Translations under genes and position numbers: made by a program
Assembly (NCBI GenBank): GCA_051313645.2
Contig: JBNRSN020000002.1
Coordinates: forward strand, 323,764,001-323,828,000
Direction of reading: 5' to 3'
Source of the DNA: Centroscyllium fabricii
Taxonomy: Eukaryota
DNA: 64,000 nucleotides
Shown: positions 8,137-46,319 of the stretch, one piece after another
Layout: each line of letters begins with the position of its first letter
Numbering within the stretch: the first letter of the stretch is position 1
The notes under the pieces: model-generated
Database searches by the model: none
Told to the model about the DNA's origin: nothing
Seen by the model: only the letters and a program-made list of their open reading frames with translations

Positions 8137-8236
8137 TACATAAGAACATAAGAAATAGGAGCAGGAGTAGGCCAATCGGACTCTCGAGCCTGCTCCGCCA
8201 TTCAACAAGATCATGGCTGATCTGATCCTAACCTCA
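8137..8236 (-). repeat. CR1-like LINE 3' tail fragment
   Basis: ACATAAGAACATAAGAAATAGGAGCAGGAGTAGGCC is the reverse of a CR1 3' end with a short terminal repeat. Similar to 11105-11200. Confidence 0.65.
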
Positions 8237-9071
8237 ATTTTATTTTTACTCTCCACCCCGCCCAAACCCATGTGATCACCTGGGAGAGTCGAAAAACCAG
8301 ATTAAAAAACCCAGTAGCCAATTTGTGAGAAAAAAATCAGGAAAATTCCTCTCCGACCCATCTAGGCGATCGAAAACTGGTCCAGGAGATCACATGGCCG
8401 ATCTGAACCTAGCCTCACATCCACTACAATACAGAAATGATATGCAGAAGTCTGACAATGTTAATAAAACTTAATAAATGTTTTACTGGTTAAATCTGCA
8501 TCTAAGATCTTGTGAAATGGAGCTCATGTGTTATTCTACCAAGATTCCGACCAAATTTTTCAACATTAAGCAAGTATACCAGGATTATAAAACAGCAACA
8601 AATAGCAGATACAAAATCAAGTGCATTTTCTTAGTAAGGTTTGTCACTGCATGTCCCATTTAGTCTCTCTTCCCTCCGTCATTCCATGCAAAACAGACAT
8701 ACAAGATGTACAATGGGAATGTACAAAGTCAAACAGGTACCTTACGCGAAGAAGAAAGTATGAAGTGGAGGAAAAGTCACTCTGTGTAGCTCACAAATTT
8801 CAACAAACAATTTGCAATTTGCTTTTATGGATTCTTCCCGTAATTTATTCAATCTCCTGAAGGAAGCAAATAATTGCAGATAAAATTTTCATGAGCAGAT
8901 TTTATCTGTCAACCATCTCCTTGGCCCCAAACATCAACTGAGCAAAAATGCCAGAATCTCAAGCTAACATTGCTATCGACATTATTCAGCACATCCTATA
9001 CACTGATGTCTCCACTCCATTGCACTGTATGTTTAAAATGGCATGAAATGCATCAATGAAAAAGAGAGATA

Positions 9072-9604
9072 CAGGTTGAAGACCGTTAATCCAGTAACTG
9101 AAAAGTCAGCAGCTTCAGTCGTCTGGCATAAATTGCCCCGACTGCCCTGCGCATGTGCAAAATGGCCACCGCGATTGATGCTTCGGCGAATGATCTGTGC
9201 ATGCACCGCTGAATGGCGAGCGCATGCGCAGATCATTCAAAATGGCCGGCAGAAGTTTTGAAAGATCTGTCCATGTGCCACCGAATGGCGAGCGCATGCG
9301 CAGACCATTGAAAACTTCCAGTGGCCATTTTGAATGATCTGCGCATCCGCTCACCATTCGGCGGCACACGCGCAGATCATTCAAAACTTTGCAGCGGCCA
9401 TTTCGCATGATCTGCGCATGCGCTCGCCATTTAGCGGCAAATGCGCAGATCATTCAAAATTTGCGGCGCCCATTTCCAATGCTCTGCGCATTCGCATGGC
9501 CATTTTGAATGGTGCGTGCATCCGCACTGGACGGCTTCATTCTTCTGGCTTTTTCGCGATACCGACGTGGGCCTGGCCGTGCCGGATTAACGGTGTTCAA
9601 CCTG
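9072..9604. mobile_element. Tc1/mariner-type MITE with internal direct and inverted ~70-bp repeats
   Basis: TA|CAGGTTGAAGACCGTTAATCC ... GGATTAACGGTGTTCAACCTG|TA (TIR plus TA TSD). Confidence 0.85.
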
Positions 9605-9638
9605 TACAGGGGTAAAGTTGTAAGCTAACAGACAACAT

Positions 9639-10431: not shown

Positions 10432-11206
10432 AGTGAATGTGGAGAAAAAGTGTGATCTAGAAGAAATGAGGATAATTCAAAAGCATTGATTGGTATTGGC
10501 AATTCACATAGTATCAGTGGGATTCAGTCGGTTATGAAACAGTGTGAATTAAATAAAAAATTAATGGAAAATGATTGGTATTGTGATTTTATGATTAATT
10601 TTAAAAAGTTATAGCCCAAAGTGGCATTAAAACAAGTGGGCCCCTCGGGATTATACTGAAGTTTTAAAATCACCTTTATACAGAAACTCAAATAATACAG
10701 GAATGGGTGATTTTTCATTTTCTCATATCTGGCCTTCTCTCCTGAAATTGTTCATCACTTTAGAAATTTTAAAAATAAATGGAAAGCTTTCATATAACCA
10801 CTGTCTCACATTTATCCTTCAAAACTTCATTATAATGTGAACATAATGCACCAGATTTTGCTGTCAAAATAACAGTGATGCGCAAATGGCACAGCAACTT
10901 CAGGCAAGGAGCAGATACATGTTTAAATCCCAATACCCAAAAGTTGCTGTCCAAGGTGCGCTGCTCTGCCGTTAGCTTCACAAAAATGGCATTTTGTTGT
11001 TTCTCCTTCAGCATTGAGATGCATTGATTGTCGTGAAGTTGCTGTATTTGTGCGGTAGATACAGACTAATCTCGCCACAGAAAGTTAAGTCTCGTCATTA
11101 CAAGCACAAGGAATACAGGAACAGGAGAAGGCCATTTAGCCCCTCGAGCCTGCTCCGCCATTCAATAAGGTCATGGCTAATCTGCCACCTAACTTCATAT
11201 ACCCAC

Positions 11207-11484
11207 TGTGATAAACCCTTTATCAGTTGTATATAGTTAACTACCATGTATTGCTATGTACCAATGTAAATACCTGTACTGTAAGGTGATGACTGGGACA
11301 TGCCCAGGTTAGCTCCGCCCACGACTCCTCCCTCCCTGGAGGAGGTATATAAGTGGCTGCACCCATCCCCCAGCCATACCTGGGGACAGTCGACTAGCTG
11401 GTGCATGTTCCAGTAGTAGTCAATAAAAGCCTTATTGTTTCTCTAACTAACTACTCATTTCCGAGGCTGTTATTTCAGGTCACA
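11207..11484 (+). repeat. 5' LTR (278 bp)
   Basis: TGTGA...TCACA ends, TATATAA at ~11347, AATAAA at 11422. Differs from the 3' LTR by 6 substitutions and one 8-bp indel (manual count). Confidence 0.95.
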
Positions 11485-11505
11485 ATTTTATTGACTACTT
11501 TGAAA

Positions 11506-14240
11506 ATGGATACTATGATCAAGCCAGCAACGTTTGAATTGGATCCCCGATCACCAGGAGCATCGAACGCCTTTACACACTGGCACAGTGTCTTCGATGG
11601 ATACCTAAGAGCAAACGCAGTGGTCGTGGTGACCGATGAGCACAAACGACGGCTCCTCAACGCCCGGGTGGGCCCTCAGGTGTACTCCATGATCGTGGAC
11701 GCCTCATCTTTTCAGGATGCCATCAGGATTCTCAAAGCTGAGTACAATCGGGCACCTAATATCGTCCACGCTAGGCATATCCTTGCCACCAAAAAACAGC
11801 AACCCGGTGAGTCAAGCGTGGAGTTCCTAAGAGCTCTCAGAATACTGTCGCGGGACTGTGACTGCAGAGCGCTAACGGCCCAGGTCCATGTAGACAGCCT
11901 CATTAGAGACGCTTATGTAACAGGCCTCAGGTCAGACTATGTGAGACAGAGACTGCTAGAGCAGAACGGCCTTGACCTGCAGGCAACCGCGGACCTGGGG
12001 AATGTGCTGGATGTGGCCTCACTGAACTTATCATCGTACTCGAGTAACTATATGGGCCCAGCCCCGCCATCTTGGACAACGCCGGCGCAACGACCGGCAG
12101 AATAATTAATTGCAGCTGCCCACGTGAAAATGGCAGCCAAATGTTACTTTTGTGGGCAGTCCCAGCACCCGAGACGTAACTACCCTGCCAGAGAAGCGGC
12201 CTGTTCGAAATGTGGGAAGAAAGGACATTACGCAAAGGTCTGTAAAGCAACCACGAAACCGAAACCAGGCAGCGCCGCGTGTGGAACATGGGAGCAGCCA
12301 TATTGGGCTCACCCATCCCCCACTCAGCACCCCTCGTGGCAGCAGTCGCCATATTGGACTCAGCCTCCCCCTCCACAGTACACCGCATGGCGGCAGCCAT
12401 CTTGGGGACCGGCCCCGGAGGACTACTCTCCGGATCAAGACGAATCGGAGGACCCAGTATTAGCATCGGTGACCATCGACCAGGACAAGACTCAGTCACT
12501 GGAAGAATCTGCGGATCAAGACGAATCGGCTGATCCGGTATTGGCATCGGTGACCCTTGATCAAAACAAGACCCAACCGCTGGAAAAATCAATGATGCCG
12601 GTGGAAGTTAACGGTCAAGAGGTGGTGTGCCTGTTCGACAGCGGGAGCACAGTAAGTTTCATAAATCCTAATACTGTAAAGCGCCTCTCCCTTAAAGTAA
12701 TCCCTGCGCGCCAGAGAATATCTATGGCTTCCAAGTCTGAATCTGCAGACGTCTCCGGGCGCTGCGCAGTAGCACTCAATGTCCAGGGCGCGATGTTTAA
12801 TGATTTTAGCTTTTACGTGCTGCCGCAGCTATGCGCCCCCTTACTCCTGGGACTGGATTTCCAGTGCCATCTCCAGAGCGTTACTATGGCGTTCGGTGGG
12901 CCCCTTCCCTCACTCACGGTTAGAAACCGCAGCCCAGCGCGGCACCCCCAACGCACTACCTGTGGCCTCTCGACCCTTAAGATCGCCCCTCCATCCCTCT
13001 TTGCCAACCTCACCCCAGACTGCAAGCCCGTCGCCACCAAGAGTAGGCGCTACAGTGCTGGGGACATGGAATTTATAAAGTCTGAGGTGCAGCGCCTCCT
13101 AAAAGAAGGGGTAATCGAGGCCAGTAATAGCCCCTGGAGGGCGCAGGTAGTGGTAGTCAAAACCGGGGAGAAGAACCGGATGGTTGTGGACTACAGCCAG
13201 ACGATAAACCGGTTCACCCAACTAGATGCCTACCCCCTCCCCCGGATAGCAGACATGGTGAATCAAATCGCTCAGTTTAAAGTGTTCTCGACCATAGATC
13301 TTAAATCTGCCTATCACCAGCTTCCCATCCGCTCAGAGGACCGGCTCTATACAGCCTTCGAGGCTGACGGTCGCCTCTACCACTTCCTTAGGGTCCCGTT
13401 TGGCGTCACGAATGGGGTCTCGGTCTTCCAAAGGGAGATGGACCGAATGGTCGATCGGCACGGGCTGCGAGCCACTTTCCCGTACCTCGATAATGTGACC
13501 ATCTGCGGCCATGATCAGCAGGACCATGACGCCAACCTCCAAAAATTTCTCCACACAGCTAAAACGCTGAACCTAACCTATAACACAGAAAAATGTGTGT
13601 TTAGCACCACCCGCCTGGCCATCCTCGGCAGCATTGTGGAGAATGGGGTCATCGGTCCCGACCCGGACCGCATGCGCCCCCTCATGGAGCTCCCCCTCCC
13701 CCACTCCCCCAAAGCCCTTAAACGGTGTTTGGGGTTTTCCGCTTATTATGCCCAGTGGGTCCCCAATTATGCGGACAAAGCTCGCCCACTACTCAAATCG
13801 ACCTCTTTTCCCCTTTCTGCAGAAGCCAACTCGGCGTTCTGTAGAATTAAAAACGATATTGCCAAAGCCACGATGCACGCTGTAGATGAATCTGTCCCAT
13901 TCCAAGTGGAGAGCGATGCATCGGACTTTGCCCTGGCCGCCACCCTTAACCAGGCGGGCAGACCCGTGGCCTTCTTCTCACGTACCCTCCAGGGCCCCGA
14001 GACCCGTCACTCCTCAGTCGAGAAGGAGGCCCAGGCCATCGTTGAAGCAGTGCGGCACTGGAAGCACTACCTGGCCGGCAAGCGTTTTACCCTGTTGACT
14101 GACCAACGATCAGTCGCGTTCATGTTCAACAACAAGGAATGGGGTAAAATAAAGAACGACAAGATATTAAGGTGGAGTATTGAACTCTCTGCATTCAATT
14201 ATGATATGTTGTACCGGCCCGGGAAATTTAACGCTCCCCC
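11506..14240 (+). pseudogene. Gypsy gag-pol: Gag, zinc knuckles, aspartic protease, RT, RNase H
   Basis: Single frame broken by TAA at 12103-12105. Motifs: CSKCGKKGHYAKVC knuckle, LFDSGS protease, DLKSAYHQ / PFGV / YLDN RT, ESDAS..EKEAQA..TD RNase H. Homology stops after YRPGKFN. Confidence 0.92.
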
Positions 14241-14689
14241 AGCCACCGACGACAAGGTACGCTCCCTGACACGTGGACCCAGTACCCCAGTACGCCCGCA
14301 CGGCACCTGCGAGCAGCACGGCGTGGCCTCCAGCTTGGATCCACAGCGCGCGCCCCCCAGAGTCAGAGGACGAAGGAGAGAGCGCGCCCCCTGCTGTCAG
14401 AACAAGGGCACCACCACCCAGAAGTAACAATTTAACAACCACCGCTCGTCAACCGGCACCGGCACCACTACAGCAACCGACACGGCCAGCCACCCCGCGA
14501 CCACGGACACCACGGACACCACCAGCGGTGTGACGATCAACGCGGATCACCAATCTGCCTGAACGACTCAACCTGTAATTAAAAGAACTTTTCACGTTTA
14601 TACCCCGTGGGACTTTTGTTTATTAAAGAATTTTTTTTCCTTCCTTTTCCTTTCACCCCGCCGGACTTTCGTTTTAAAGAAGGGGTGAA

Positions 14690-14959
14690 TGTGATAAACC
14701 CTTGTATATAGTTAACTACCATGTATTGCTATGTACAAATGTAAATACCTGTACTGTAAGGTGATGACTGGGACATGCCCAGGTTAGCTCCGCCCATGAC
14801 TCCTCCCTCCCTGGAGGAGGTATATAAGTGGCTGCACCCATCCCTCAGCCATACCTGGGGACAGTCGACTAGCTGGTGCATGTTCCAGTAGTAGTCAATA
14901 AAAGCCTTATTGTTTCTCTAACTAACTACTCGTTTCCGAGGCCATTATTTCAGGTCACA
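14690..14959 (+). repeat. 3' LTR (270 bp)
   Basis: Direct repeat of 11207-11484, preceded by the PPT. Confidence 0.95.
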
Positions 14960-17900
14960 CCCACCTTTGCCCCATATCCCTCAATAACTTTGGTTCACAA
15001 AAATCTATCAATCTCAGATTTAAAATGAACAATTGATTTAGCATCAATTGCCATTTGCAGAAGAGAGTTCCAACCTTCTACCTCCCTGTGTGTGTGGAAG
15101 TGTTTCTTAATTTCACTCCCGAAAGGCCGGGCTCTAATTTTTTTAGACCCCCCAACCAGGGGAAATAGTTTCTATCTAACTACCCTATCTGTTCCCCTAA
15201 ATATCTTGAAAACTTCAATCAAATCACCCCTTAACCTTCTAAATTCCAGGGAATATAACCCTAGTTTGTGTAATCTCTCATCATAATTTAACCCCTGAAG
15301 TCCGGGTATCATTCTGGTAAACCTACGCTGCACTCCCTCCAAGGCCAATAAACCCTTCCAAAGGTGTGGTGCCCAGAACTGCTCACAGTACTCCAGGTGT
15401 GGTCTAACCAGGGCTTTGTCTAGCTGTAGCATAACTTCTACTCCCTTGTAATCTAGTGCTCTAGGTATAAAGGCCAGCATTCCACCAGCTTTTGTGATTA
15501 AAATGTCATGAAGAGGTCTAGAAATAATGATCCATGTACCTGGACCCCCAAGATTCTTGGGACCGCCACTGTTTTTAGCTTTTCACCATTTAGAAAATAG
15601 CCTGTTCTATCTTTTTTAGGTCCAACGTGGATGACCTCACATTTGCCTACACTGGGCAAAACTGTGGCAAATGTATTTCAATCACTTAATCTATTAATAT
15701 CTCTTTGTAATTTTATGCTTTCATCTACATTGCTTACAATGCCACCTATCTTTGTGCCATCAGCAAATTTAGACATGTAGCCTTCTATTCCATCATCTAA
15801 GCTGTTAATCAATACAGTGAATAGTTGAGGCCCAAACACAGATCCCTGTGGGACACCACTAGTCACATCCTACCAATGAGAGTACCTGCCTATTATCCCT
15901 ACTCTCTGTCTCCTGCCGCTCAGCCAATTTCCTAACCAGGTCAATAATTTGCCTTCAATTCCATGGGCTTCAACCTTAGTTAACAGTCTCTTATGAGGGA
16001 TTTTATCAAATGCCTTCTGGAAGTCCATATAAATAAAATCTATCAACATTCCTTTGTCCGCTACTTTAGTCACCCCCTCAAAAAATTCAAGCAGGTTTGT
16101 CAGGCGTGACCTACCTTTCACAAATCTATGTTAGCTCTCTCTGATCAACTAAAAATTTGCAAGGTCACCCTATCCTTAATCATAGACTTTAGTAATTTCC
16201 TGACAACAGGGGCTAGGCTAACTGGTCTATAATTCCATGGTTTCCTTTTCTCTCCATTCTTAAATAGCAGAGTGACATGCACAATTTTCCAATCTAAAGG
16301 AACGGCTCCTGAATCAAGAGAATTTTGGAAGATTATAGTTAAGGCATCTGCAATGTGCTCACCTACTTCATTTAAAACCCTGGGATGAAAACTCTCTGTT
16401 CCTGGGGATTTGTCACTCTTTAGTGCCATAACAACATGATAATTGTTCATTACTGCCAATCACCACTCTGGCACTGAAAATTAATTATTGCAAGTGTGGA
16501 CTCTCATTCTTTCAGATATTAATTGTTGGAGATTTTAAAAATATTAAATTAAAAATTAACTTTTTTTTTACTTTTCCTGTCTTTTTTCTCTATCTAATTC
16601 TTCTTTTCCTCTTTTTCTTTCTCTTTCTGTACCTGATTTAATATTGAATTCACCCACTCTAATTTACACGTCTTTCTCAGTCCTCCCGCTGTTTATTTCC
16701 CCATCCTTCAATCTGATTGATTGAGGAGATACTGTTTGTTGCTCTGTTATCAGCAACGTTATCAGCTCGCACTTTCAGCAACTTAGTGCGCAAAACATAA
16801 CGCAGTTGGATGCCCTGCTACAATAAAAGCAGGCCCATTGTGTTCACTGTTCATAGTTTTAAATTGCCTACAATTATAAAAGAAAACATTTTTTATTCAA
16901 ACTTACTGAAATCAGCTTCACAATCATGCATCATTGCAACAAATATTATTTTGTATTTTTATTAATGAATATGAAACTAATAACAATGGTAACAATGATA
17001 TGGTGAAAATGTATTAAAATACCACAAGATATTTAATGATCATATGGGTCATTGGGATCAAAAGTCTGGTATCAATGTGTTTTCAAACTATAGTCTTTGT
17101 GGGCTTGCATACAAAATATTACCAATAAAAGGCCTTTATTGACAAACTGTGCCAAATGATAAGCTAAGAATGTGCATCTGGTTATTCTGTTAGCCCCCAA
17201 CAGTAATTCAGTGTGATCTGCAGAGCACTTGTCAATGTTTTATCATAGCACAGTAAAACATAAGTAGTATCATGCCATATACAGTTCCTAGAGAAAATAA
17301 AGACATGTGACCACTGAAACAGATATACAACTGCACAACACAATTTACTCTCATCAGCTGGTGAAAGAGTATAAATAGAAAGCAGATATTCGTAAAGCCT
17401 TTAGCCAAAAAGCTGAAAGAACATTGTGTTACTAAATTGCTTCCATTACTGTCTGCTAATTGACATTAGTTGGTAATAGTACACACTGTGCAGCAGCAAG
17501 TTTTCAGTTATAAAGAAAAGGCTATTTTATAATTACAAAAGGAAAGAGCTGTTTTCAATCTAAACATTTCCTTTCCTTAAACACTGGATAAGAATGTTTA
17601 ATTATGATCTCTCCTATTCGACAGCAGAACCTCCCAGTTTTCTTTCCTGAGAAAACAATCTGCTGGAGATCCGTCATGTTGGGCAACAGCTGGCCAGAAA
17701 AGACTCGCTTGGGTGACATATGCAGTGGCTCTGTACTCGGCCAGCTCTCAATATACTGTGTGGGGATCACCACCCTTCCCAATCCTGGATGCTGAAATTG
17801 GCACTCCAATAAATTTGAAAATGTTCAGTATGGGCTATGGTTCAGGTCCTAGCAGATATTGAACATTTTAATTGCATTGGCGCACTGAGAACAGCATTAG

Positions 17901-21400: not shown

Positions 21401-22038
21401 GTTTCCCATCCTCATTACTATGGACACAGTAGTATCCTATTATTTGCAATAGCTCAGAACAAACAAAATGTTAGATATAACCTGAACAAAATGGAGCAAC
21501 TATACTATTACTATGGCAGAGGCAAGCTGGAACAGCAAAAAAAATGTACATCAGAATTATATACATTTTTAAAATGCAGTAATTGAATTCAACTTCTTAC
21601 GTTTATGAGTTCCCTGGTATGTTGTAATGCTTTTTGATTGCAGGCTTCCATGTCTCATTGACACAGAAAATGCCAGCTGCATCCAGGGCGGACTGGCCAT
21701 ATAGAAATTGGAAGATTTGCCAAGTGCTCTTGTGAATTATTCCACAGCACTGTATTATCTACACTCCAATTTTTCTGAGAATCCCACACTCTTTTGGGAA
21801 GCCAGTTCACCCCTGTCTGCAGCTCATTATGCATCGCTCTCTCCTCCAACACAAGAGAACTCAGTACATACACAGGACTTAATTCTCTAAATGGTTAATT
21901 TTAATATTACACAAAAGTGATCTGTGGTATCGATTTTTTCCTAATTTATGATTCTGTAGCACTTCTCATACAGAGAGACCTATCAGCAAGTTCTGCAGGG
22001 TAGTGGGCAAGGAATGGATGTTGAGTGTGAAGAGATTG

Positions 22039-22211
22039 GAATAAAAACAGAAAATACTGGAAATACTCAGATGATCAGGCAGCATCTGTGGAGAGAGTTA
22101 ACGTTTCAGGTAGTCAGCGAATGGTCATCCACCTGAAATGTTATCTCTTGTTTCTCTCTCCACAGATGCTGACTGACCTGCTGAGTGTTGCCAGAATTTT
22201 CTGCTTTTATT
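22039..22211. repeat. Foldback (inverted) Penelope-like terminal repeat fragment
   Basis: AATAAAAACAGAAAATACTGGAAATACTCAG..CAGCATCTGTGGAGAGAG pairs with CTCTCTCCACAGATGCTG..CTGAGTGTTGCCAGAATTTTCTGCTTTTATT. Related pieces at ~40910-41050 and 53230-53550. Confidence 0.6.
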
Positions 22212-24349
22212 GCAATCTCTTCACTTTGCAGTATTTTGCTTTTGTGAAGAGATTGGAGTTGGGGTGGGCTGAGAACATGGTCAAAGAAACATATTTTTGT
22301 CAAGCTTTTGAAAGTGGAGAGGTAGGAGACAATATTGTGAAGTGGCAACAAAGATATAGTAGTTCCAGAAGGCAGGAGCACAATGGCTGAAGGTCCTCCC
22401 ACTGATGGTGGAATGGAGGGATTTGGAGAATGAGGTGCCAGCTTGTGCCAGAAGAGGTGAATATGTGCACTGTGTCCCAAGGCTGCAGGAAATCACTGAG
22501 ATAGGATGGAGTAAGGCGATAGAGTGATTTGAAACTAATTTAAAAGATTACTAAAAGTATACAGTTTTATTCATTTAGAAATGCTTAGGCACTTGGCAAC
22601 TTTGAACTAGATACCTGAGCATTTCTCAACTTGGCTTTGAAACAAGTTGGAGTTATACTACACACGGTGCAGAATTCGAGTGGGGTGACACTGCCTACTG
22701 AAGGTGATCACCCAACTCTTGCTTCGGAGTCAAATGCTCAATCTGATTTACAATGACACTTTTATGTCGATGCTCACCTGAAACTACTTCACATCAACGC
22801 AAAGGTCATAGCACAATAACAACCTTAAGCATAAAATCTTTCCATGTGTTTTCACATTTTACAAGCCTAAACTATTTTATTTTTACCTATCACACTGTGG
22901 TGTGCATTTCCTGTAAAAATTCGTGAATACTCGAAAACAACAACACGCACTGCAGAAATATTTTTTTTCTGCATGTTGCTCATATATAGTTTTGTGGGTT
23001 TGCTTCCCACGTGTAAGCGTCGTACGGCTGTGCTATTTTAGGTTATACTTTGTCACAAACCACAACATATAGGTGTTCGGAAAGCGCTCACCCTAAACTT
23101 ACAAAGAGGAAACCGGGCGTCTCCAAAGCCAGTTGAAGGTGAGCGCTGTGCACCATTTTACCTCAGATATCAGATGAAACGCGAGACTTTTGCTGAGCGC
23201 GCTGCGGCCGGCGGGCGGGTTGCTGATGCAGACAAACCCCCCGGACTCTGCGTCCTGTTGTGTTTCAGGCGGCTGTGGTTTGCAGCAGGCCCGCAACGAA
23301 CGCTTGTGCTAAAATGGCGCCAACGTGGGCGCATGGCGCTGCAGGCTTTGACATTTAATCATTCAAAAAAACGGCACCAATGTCCTTTAATCTTCATCTC
23401 CATGTTCATTAAGTTTCATACACTGATGCGCGTGTAACTGTTTTTATATAACTGACACAACGTTCGACTTCAGTGACTCGGTGAAGCTTTTGCGGTTGTT
23501 TCTCGGGTGATCACTGACTGGCCAATGTGCATCTACCTGAAGAGGAAGGGTTGTTCATATTAAACAGCGTGTAGTGCAATTAATTAATTAATGGAAACTT
23601 AAATATAGTTCGTTTTAATGAGATAACTGAAGTTTAGAAATGACTCTTCCGTGTTACCCGAGTTACTTTTGTGCTCCATAAATAAAGCGCATTAGGGCAG
23701 CTCCCCCGGCAGGGAGTACGTGGCCTTCTTCCCAGATACTTCACGGGCCAATTGGTGTCACTCTACCAATGGTGGAGTCCAACACCAAACACCACCTCTC
23801 CCCGCTATTATACAGCCAGCTGATGTGTCAATAATATAATATAATACAGAATGATTTGTATTACTGGTAATATAACACAGAATGATTTGCTATTACTGGT
23901 AACTGTTACTCTGATTTTACACACACTGAGCCACCAATGCACAAGAACTCGGCAAACGAATACGCCAGATCTCTTAGATGTTCACCACACCCTATATTGA
24001 TGAATAACAGTAAACGCTGGCCTTTTAATGTAGACATACAGTATTTATATATTGAGAGGAGAACCTGGTGATACAAACGTTTCTGATATAAGTTGTAGAA
24101 TATTTTCATTTATTTGAAAAGTCATGAATACAACTATCTCCCCAATGGTGAGATGGCACGAACGGTTCCAGTTCTTTATATACGATTATAGGAAGAAAGT
24201 TAAACACTTTAATCAATATTTCGGTGTACTATCAATACTCAATCAAACGTGACTGCATATATTATAAAGCATTGTTAACTATACGTTAGTCATTTTTATT
24301 TCTTAGCAAATTTGTATTTCCATGAGTCTGATGAAATGCGCTAATTTCG

Positions 24350-45755: not shown

Positions 45756-46319
<564 letters not shown>

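Follow-up and report, generated by a model that had tools for sequence, protein, structure and literature searches.

A covarying LTR/post-LTR helix, very likely serving to self-prime reverse transcription, in a non-chromovirus clade of Ty3/Gypsy retrotransposons

The retrotransposon copy and its surroundings

The 64,000-nt stretch of Centroscyllium fabricii DNA analyzed here (the window) carries a dead copy of a non-chromovirus Ty3/Gypsy LTR retrotransposon at positions 11207-14959, the features of which all lie on the forward (+) strand. The copy is bounded by 5-bp TSDs, CCCAC on the left (11202-11206) and the same 5-mer on the right (14960-14964), and TSDs of this length were also present in 4/4 full-length relatives checked. 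Comparison of the LTR pair delimits a 5′ LTR of 278 nt (TGTGA...TCACA, 11207-11484) and a 3′ LTR of 270 nt (14690-14959), the latter preceded by a polypurine tract (14676-14689). The two LTRs differ by six substitutions and one 8-nt indel, which is an insertion within the first 20 nt of the 5′ LTR relative to the 3′ LTR. The inserted bases (within 11208-11226) read as an inverted copy of the adjoining TGATAAA, as if produced by a template switch.

A single gag-protease-RT-RNase H frame extends from an ATG at 11506 to 14241, with a stop codon breaking it prematurely at 12103-12105. An in-frame tandem duplication of 81 nt (12420-12581), its units 78% alike, was noted in the stretch that separates the zinc knuckles of gag from the protease. 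Given that matches from the proteins of four relatives tested end at 14241-14268, we consider the integrase to be missing from the window copy. It is present in 34/36 relatives and placed after RNase H in the clade alignment; of the order gag-PR-RT-RH-IN, PR-RT-RH was seen in the window copy and IN only in relatives.

The element is inserted in an older interspersed repeat, which makes up its flanks (11102-11206 and 14960-15050) and has a further copy at 8142-8224. Contigs bridging both flanks skip ~3,750-3,840 nt and represent the empty form. In two sequencing runs of one organism, ~119,000 and ~98,000 contigs match the element and its flanks at a likeness of at least 80%, numbers that suggest a large family and are not to be read as a copy number. 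Elsewhere in the window, 45756-46319 (+) is the final coding exon in a paired-like homeobox gene with an OAR motif, presumably Pitx2, as which it reads; the retrotransposon shares its strand, sits ~31 kb upstream, and is possibly intronic. Two further repeats were noted, a MITE-like element with 23-nt terminal inverted repeats flanking palindromic units, four to five in number and 72-73 nt long (9070-9606), and a 71-nt inverted repeat with arms 56 nt apart and 87% complementary (22027-22224).

An LTR/post-LTR helix across the clade

Immediately past the 5′ LTR of the window copy, a 1-nt spacer (A, 11485) is followed by the putative primer-binding site TTTTATTGACTACT (11486-11499), which begins TTT and lacks TGG. 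This site is the exact 14-nt reverse complement of AGTAGTCAATAAAA (11415-11428) within the LTR, with 57 nt separating the two. We refer to the pairing as helix P1, the LTR segment (the primer arm) being its 5′ strand and the primer site its 3′ strand. The arm contains the sole AATAAA/ATTAAA of the LTR (11422-11427), so that a first-pass annotation of this DNA, which had described a 14-mer past the LTR as the perfect complement of an LTR stretch that includes the poly(A) signal, was exact in this respect. It had also read the element as having no tRNA-type site, which agrees with the non-TGG start and with an LTR complement correctly oriented for minus-strand synthesis, and had placed no complement past the 3′ LTR, where we found the identical arm copy (14890-14903) to be without a partner downstream. 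None of 20,000 dinucleotide-shuffled LTRs gave a match of at least 14 nt to the first 25 nt past the LTR, and comparing window positions with their own preceding 278 nt gave such a match at 45 of the 12,735 sampled (0.35%). The leader as a whole folds only modestly better than shuffled sequences (z = −1.7).

Relatives were gathered as 54 loci, namely 48 metagenome loci found via a degenerate gag-start pattern, five gag-start loci out of 16 recovered from contaminated genome bins, and one (L095, with the helix) from 14 further regions of eukaryote-contaminated assemblies. One further candidate, L107, was excluded as a relative: its gag match is weak, and its 14-nt complement lies 121 nt off and may be an LTR terminal inverted repeat. 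The prokaryote genome bins G001-G005 (L049-L064) hold many eukaryotic Gypsy elements, with 86 and 123 matches in two of the bins, pointing to heavy host contamination.

The clade itself is broad, with 1,568 of 7,997 scored candidate proteins passing E ≤ 1e-30 against the window element. Among the matches listed, the closest named proteins come from Scyliorhinus, Hypanus, Narcine, and Mobula (best 80-84% over RT/RH), followed at ~60% by Trichuris, Trichinella, Actinostola, Oculina, and many assemblies, such that the named matches span sharks, rays, corals, an anemone, and nematodes. Scans of a viral collection gave no confirmed relative of the element. In an RT tree (a quick search with 36 rows, none of them a named Tf1 or sushi sequence, leaving out L021 and L061, which have no usable RT), all helix-bearing loci form one long-branched group (SH-aLRT 100), and within it the window copy and L050, its nearest non-elasmobranch relative, share one branch (SH-aLRT 99), the elasmobranch branch. 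The RT scores 164 bits to Ty3 vs. 590-820 bits among clade members. A chromodomain was absent from the 20 Pfam families matched by 37 clade alignment members (0/37 at E ≤ 0.01) and from the precomputed domains of 120 matches listed.

Scoring the helix as in register where at least 10 of 12 pairs form, anchored one base past the CA of the LTR, we found it kept in the same register at 42/54 loci. Five further loci (L016, L020, L026, L034, and L036) retain a decayed yet recognizable helix, five (L007, L011, L015, L017, and L048) have none, their upstream LTR apparently having been lost, and two (L013 and L045) are too short to score. The first pair, invariant elsewhere, is changed on both sides in the decayed L020, where the primer site begins ATTAG and the arm ends TAAT. 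The layout is constant, consisting of 9-10 variable nt, TAAA, RCC, a loop of 24-76 nt to the CA of the LTR, the spacer, and TTTA with the complement of the variable part; the conserved motif at the end of the arm is TAAA|RCC. The spacer is A in nearly all scored loci and T in four, in a search that was itself anchored on CA-N-TTT.

While the layout is constant, the paired bases are not. The 41 scored sequences, window copy included, reduce to 23 distinct primer-site 13-mers in 15 families by gag identity, variants that are non-independent and include some decayed sister copies. Over positions 1-13 of P1, 290 of the 299 cells in these 23 variants are Watson-Crick, two are G-U, and seven are mismatched, with all four Watson-Crick pair types occurring at each of positions 6-9, 11, and 13. 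These are the compensatory changes between post-LTR site and LTR segment that the first-pass annotation had proposed looking for. Pairing drops sharply past 13 bp, with position 14 paired in 16/23 variants (cross-family level 0.56) and position 15 in 8/23 (0.29), by which point it has reached the cross-family level. Positions −12 and −13 still covary, being paired in 22/23 and 21/23 variants.

Among 13 family representatives, positions 5-11 are paired in 90/91 cells against a permuted mean of 46.7, and positions 12-14 in 35/39 against 18.6, values matched by 0/20,000 permutations in either case (tests that kinship among loci inflates); positions 15-20 are at chance. Clean two-sided swaps are also visible between close relatives (L001 vs. 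L005, L005 vs. L039), and the window copy and L050 have an extra A:T pair in common, present on both strands. The helix is a real, covarying, clade-wide structure.

An out-group of Gypsy elements from outside the clade behaves differently. Of 12 such loci examined, four had a usable LTR pair, and in all four the sequence past the LTR begins TGGCGACGAGG, and its best complement in the LTR measures 4-6 nt. Among the elements examined, the helix is limited to this clade.

Probable primer function, transcript start, and the poly(A) signal

Self-priming in some form is very probably what P1 provides, judging from the sequence comparisons. We favor a primer over mere structure because the helix begins where minus-strand DNA must start, because it is nearly devoid of G-U pairs, and because its length is close to the distance between polymerase and RNase H sites in Ty3 and CaMV, the RNase H of which cuts 11-13 nt from the polymerase site (PMC11363490). 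The 13-bp length likely reflects the grip of a Ty3-type RT.

The scarcity of G-U pairs was assessed against a second, candidate stem (P2), an RCC..GGY pairing of 3-6 bp that begins at the base following TAAA in 17/23 variants and, in the window copy, would join GCCTT (11429-11433) with GAGGC (11463-11467), adjoining the predicted cut. The summed length of P2 is 94 vs. 62.7 in shuffled loops (0/500 shuffles match), and in the window copy it is not part of the minimum-energy fold, which prefers another inner stem. G-U pairs make up 2/292 of the pairs in P1 vs. 8/73 in P2 (Fisher p = 6e-5), a contrast somewhat biased by the choice of P1 registers on Watson-Crick score. Such scarcity is what one would expect were each cycle to copy the site anew, as DNA, from the primer.

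We propose that the RNase H of the RT would cut at TAAA|RCC (after 11428, leaving a 3′-OH) beside P2, a cut site placed by analogy with Tf1, whose RT cuts its own duplex. DNA synthesis would then run through U5 back to the cut, strand transfer would jump to the 3′ LTR using the ~15-30 nt between cut and poly(A) site, and plus-strand synthesis would recopy the arm into the primer site, keeping the pairs strictly Watson-Crick. Taken together, the reading in which the covarying 13-14 bp helix stands in for the tRNA site and, as is likely, provides a primer for the minus strand out of the element's own RNA, with an internal arm and a buried AAUAAA, is one to which we would give about even chances. 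Two other uses of the arm were discarded: an 11-nt primer starting from the conserved A(−11) is ruled out by the covariation at −12 and −13, and a splice-acceptor role for the arm's T-rich AG by the unspliced sequence already pairing through this AG, which several families lack.

Where the transcript starts bears directly on this proposal. In the window LTR, a candidate GC box (CCGCCC, 11315-11320), a putative TATA box (TATATAAG, 11346-11353), and an Inr match (CCATACC, 11374-11380) are found in order, with the A at 11376, 30 nt after the TATA box, as the predicted start. In 128 kb (both strands of the window), three TATA boxes are followed by an Inr at +28 to +33. The TATA box precedes the arm by 69 nt, in line with the ~70 nt noted in the first-pass annotation, and the predicted start by 39 nt, so transcription in the window family would begin near 11376 and place the arm ~40-53 nt inside the RNA. 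Around these features (11368-11417), we also noted two hairpins, CCCCAG/CTGGGG over the Inr and CTGG/CCAG just before the arm, which might either frame the primer helix or be in competition with it.

The chief alternative is ordinary Tf1-type self-priming, in which the replicating transcript would start at the first base of the arm, its first 13-14 nt would be the primer, the TATA box would be used by other transcripts, if by any, and proximity to the cap would be the main reason for a silent 5′ poly(A) signal. This is a serious possibility that we nevertheless place clearly below even. Cleavage measured from the 5′ end of the RNA would produce just such a sharp, near-constant length of 13 bp, as in Tf1, whose primer is its first 11 bases, with RNase H cutting between bases 11 and 12 (PMC7175516); the fixed length fits such a cleavage as well as it fits the RT grip. 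Relatives are also without the window's TATA box: TATAWAW/TATAA was found ~30 nt from the arm in 0/22 relatives, and near the window's distance of 70 only in L008 (62 nt). In L050, the LTR before the arm measures only 59 nt, too little for a TATA box plus 30 plus 39 nt, and several relatives have compact LTRs of 118-163 nt. The arm itself carries an Inr-like T-A-G-T run, with YR peaking at −11 (12/23 variants), and in Tf2 the replication-competent RNA comes from just one of its starts (PMC5341516).

Against a start at the arm, the YR peak at −11 lies inside the covarying region, and with −12 and −13 themselves covarying, a start there would be too late. A start at −13 would fall on a pyrimidine (T or C) in 19/23 variants, and YR occurs at the −13 boundary in only 3/23, which makes a start exactly at the helix boundary non-canonical for Pol II. 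In the window copy, the 14-bp boundary (11414/11415) is a T|A dinucleotide and thus a possible start. The textbook GC box-TATA-Inr arrangement, 39 nt upstream of the arm, speaks for 11376. We therefore favor, by a modest degree and on sequence grounds, an arm internal to the transcript in the window family; across the whole clade, the odds are lower. The internal position put forward by the first-pass annotation is accordingly favored by the promoter spacing of the window copy, an arrangement that the relatives do not share. Contig ends of L020, L028, and L040, which fall 13-16 nt before the predicted cut, were considered as start sites and set aside as artefacts, given they lie ~55, 55, and 77 nt inside the end of the LTR. 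Lengths of ~55 and 77 nt are common assembler word lengths.

An improbable alternative, to which we give little weight, draws the primer from the arm copy in the 3′ LTR, of the same RNA or of a dimer partner. The RNA would circularize on the primer site and be cut after AAUAAAA near its 3′ end, leaving the 5′ R whole for strand transfer. The 3′ copy is equally complementary, and the scheme would explain why the arm is internal while sparing the 5′ template from cleavage; however, a local partner lies 24-76 nt away in 23/23 variants and is predicted by folding to fill the site almost fully, and our literature search turned up no precedent.

On a comparably unlikely view, the helix serves solely to silence the 5′ poly(A) signal, or else to regulate translation of gag (7 nt downstream), and priming takes another route. 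Occlusion is indeed predicted to be 5′-specific, given P1 would form once the primer site is transcribed and would bury AAUAAA at the 5′ end only. When the window copy was folded, the mean unpaired probability of AAUAAA came to 0.49 before transcription of the partner and to 0.01 in the 5′ context, against 0.39 for the 3′ context. A(A/T)TAAA also lies within the arm in 15/23 variants (10/13 family representatives). The other eight variants, however, keep the helix with GTTAAA, TTTAAA, CATAAA, or CTTAAA in the arm instead, and four of these carry a poly(A) signal unpaired in the loop, so masking cannot be the sole purpose of the helix. A purely structural stem should accept G-U pairs, as P2 does; the helix starts precisely at the required minus-strand origin, and no alternative primer site is present. 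The earlier suggestion that a hairpin hides the 5′ poly(A) signal is in line with the predicted folding of the window copy and does not hold for every variant of the clade; masking is thus likely an added effect in most families rather than the invariant.

A bolder version of the preferred reading, in which an internal arm supplies the primer, would have the poly(A) signal recruited as primer clade-wide, with a 5′-only helix that silences premature polyadenylation before being cleaved at TAAA|RCC, within the capped leader and at a distance from the 5′ end, to give a primer of 13 bp matching the RT footprint. We regard this as tentative and rather doubtful. If true, this dual use would constitute a mode of self-priming independent of the transcription start position, and an internal arm would show one way in which an LTR element avoids 5′ polyadenylation while making its primer.

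Finally, priming by a host tRNA half or small RNA, with the LTR match incidental, has a parallel in the half-tRNA priming of some Copia lineages (PMC6317226), yet is exceedingly improbable: no mature tRNA 3′ end fits a site without TGG, and one host RNA family cannot follow 23 different 13-mers, each matched by its own LTR arm, which effectively excludes a host tRNA primer. No tRNA genes were found within the 64-kb window, and Rfam gave no match near any family threshold.

Comparison with known elements and priming systems

The four TGGCGACGAGG out-group loci (L055, L058, L062, and L064), which we take to be Mag C/SURL-type animal Gypsy elements, resemble the window clade in having a single gag-pol frame and a similar size and in coming from the same assemblies. 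They differ from it in their tRNA-type site, the lack of an LTR complement, an RT identity of only ~30-33%, and a separate long branch. The Cigr-1 clade of Ciona and molluscs, with elements of ~4.2 kb and a single polyprotein, is similar to the window element in size and in its single frame. Cigr-1 and MolGy clades are given in PMC6238403 and PMC8556966.

Literature searches covering titles and abstract openings, with most subscription journals and Repbase outside their coverage, returned neither self-priming in a non-chromovirus animal Gypsy clade nor a primer overlapping a poly(A) signal, and earlier mention of either is possible. As far as the accessible text of these sources goes, self-primed reverse transcription has been linked with Tf1/sushi-related chromoviruses and with a single Copia lineage of plants. 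If our reading is true, a large non-chromovirus animal clade would represent a further, probably independent, origin of self-priming, and such elements would escape tRNA-fragment control and be missed by tRNA-based PBS annotation.

Non-tRNA priming takes several forms elsewhere. Skipper has a polypyrimidine stretch at its site (PMC5006619), and hairpins are described in GalEa and in bivalve TRIMs (PMC6934838). Several chromoviruses use hairpin priming (PMC3601003), Tj1 has been proposed to self-prime in the manner of Tf1 (PMC4600332), and in Tf2 the self-primer is included only via an upstream start (PMC5341516). In plants, self-priming is predicted for Tcn1 (Gypsy) and for TAR/Houba/Osr-1 (Copia) on evidence like ours, an LTR complement of at least 10 nt starting 0-5 nt past the 5′ LTR; these belong to other lineages and hosts, and the accessible text of that report mentions neither poly(A) overlap nor start mapping (PMC6317226).

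The closest likeness is to the Tf1/sushi chromoviruses, including Tf1 and Tf2 of Schizosaccharomyces pombe and Tj1 of S. japonicus, which, like the window clade, lack a tRNA site and have a post-LTR site to which a segment of the LTR is complementary. The window clade also shares with this group an RNase H cut predicted where the duplex ends. Tf1 has a further stem beside its cut, as would the window clade in candidate P2. The helix is very likely a self-primer, a variant of the Tf1 type. The primer is 11 nt in Tf1 vs. 13-14 nt here, the arm in the window clade ends TAAA and usually holds a poly(A) signal, and its predicted position in the window family is internal to the transcript rather than at the 5′ end. 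Although the clade appears to work like Tf1, we have not filed it with Tf1/sushi, given the absence of a chromodomain (0/37). The occlusion of the poly(A) signal, in turn, recalls the poly(A) hairpin of HIV-1, where AAUAAA is occluded in a stem near the RNA 5′ end. In HIV-1, both strands of the hairpin lie inside R, such that it can form at both ends of the RNA, and a tRNA primes; in the window clade, by contrast, the pairing partner lies outside the LTR, is present only at the 5′ end, and is itself the primer site.
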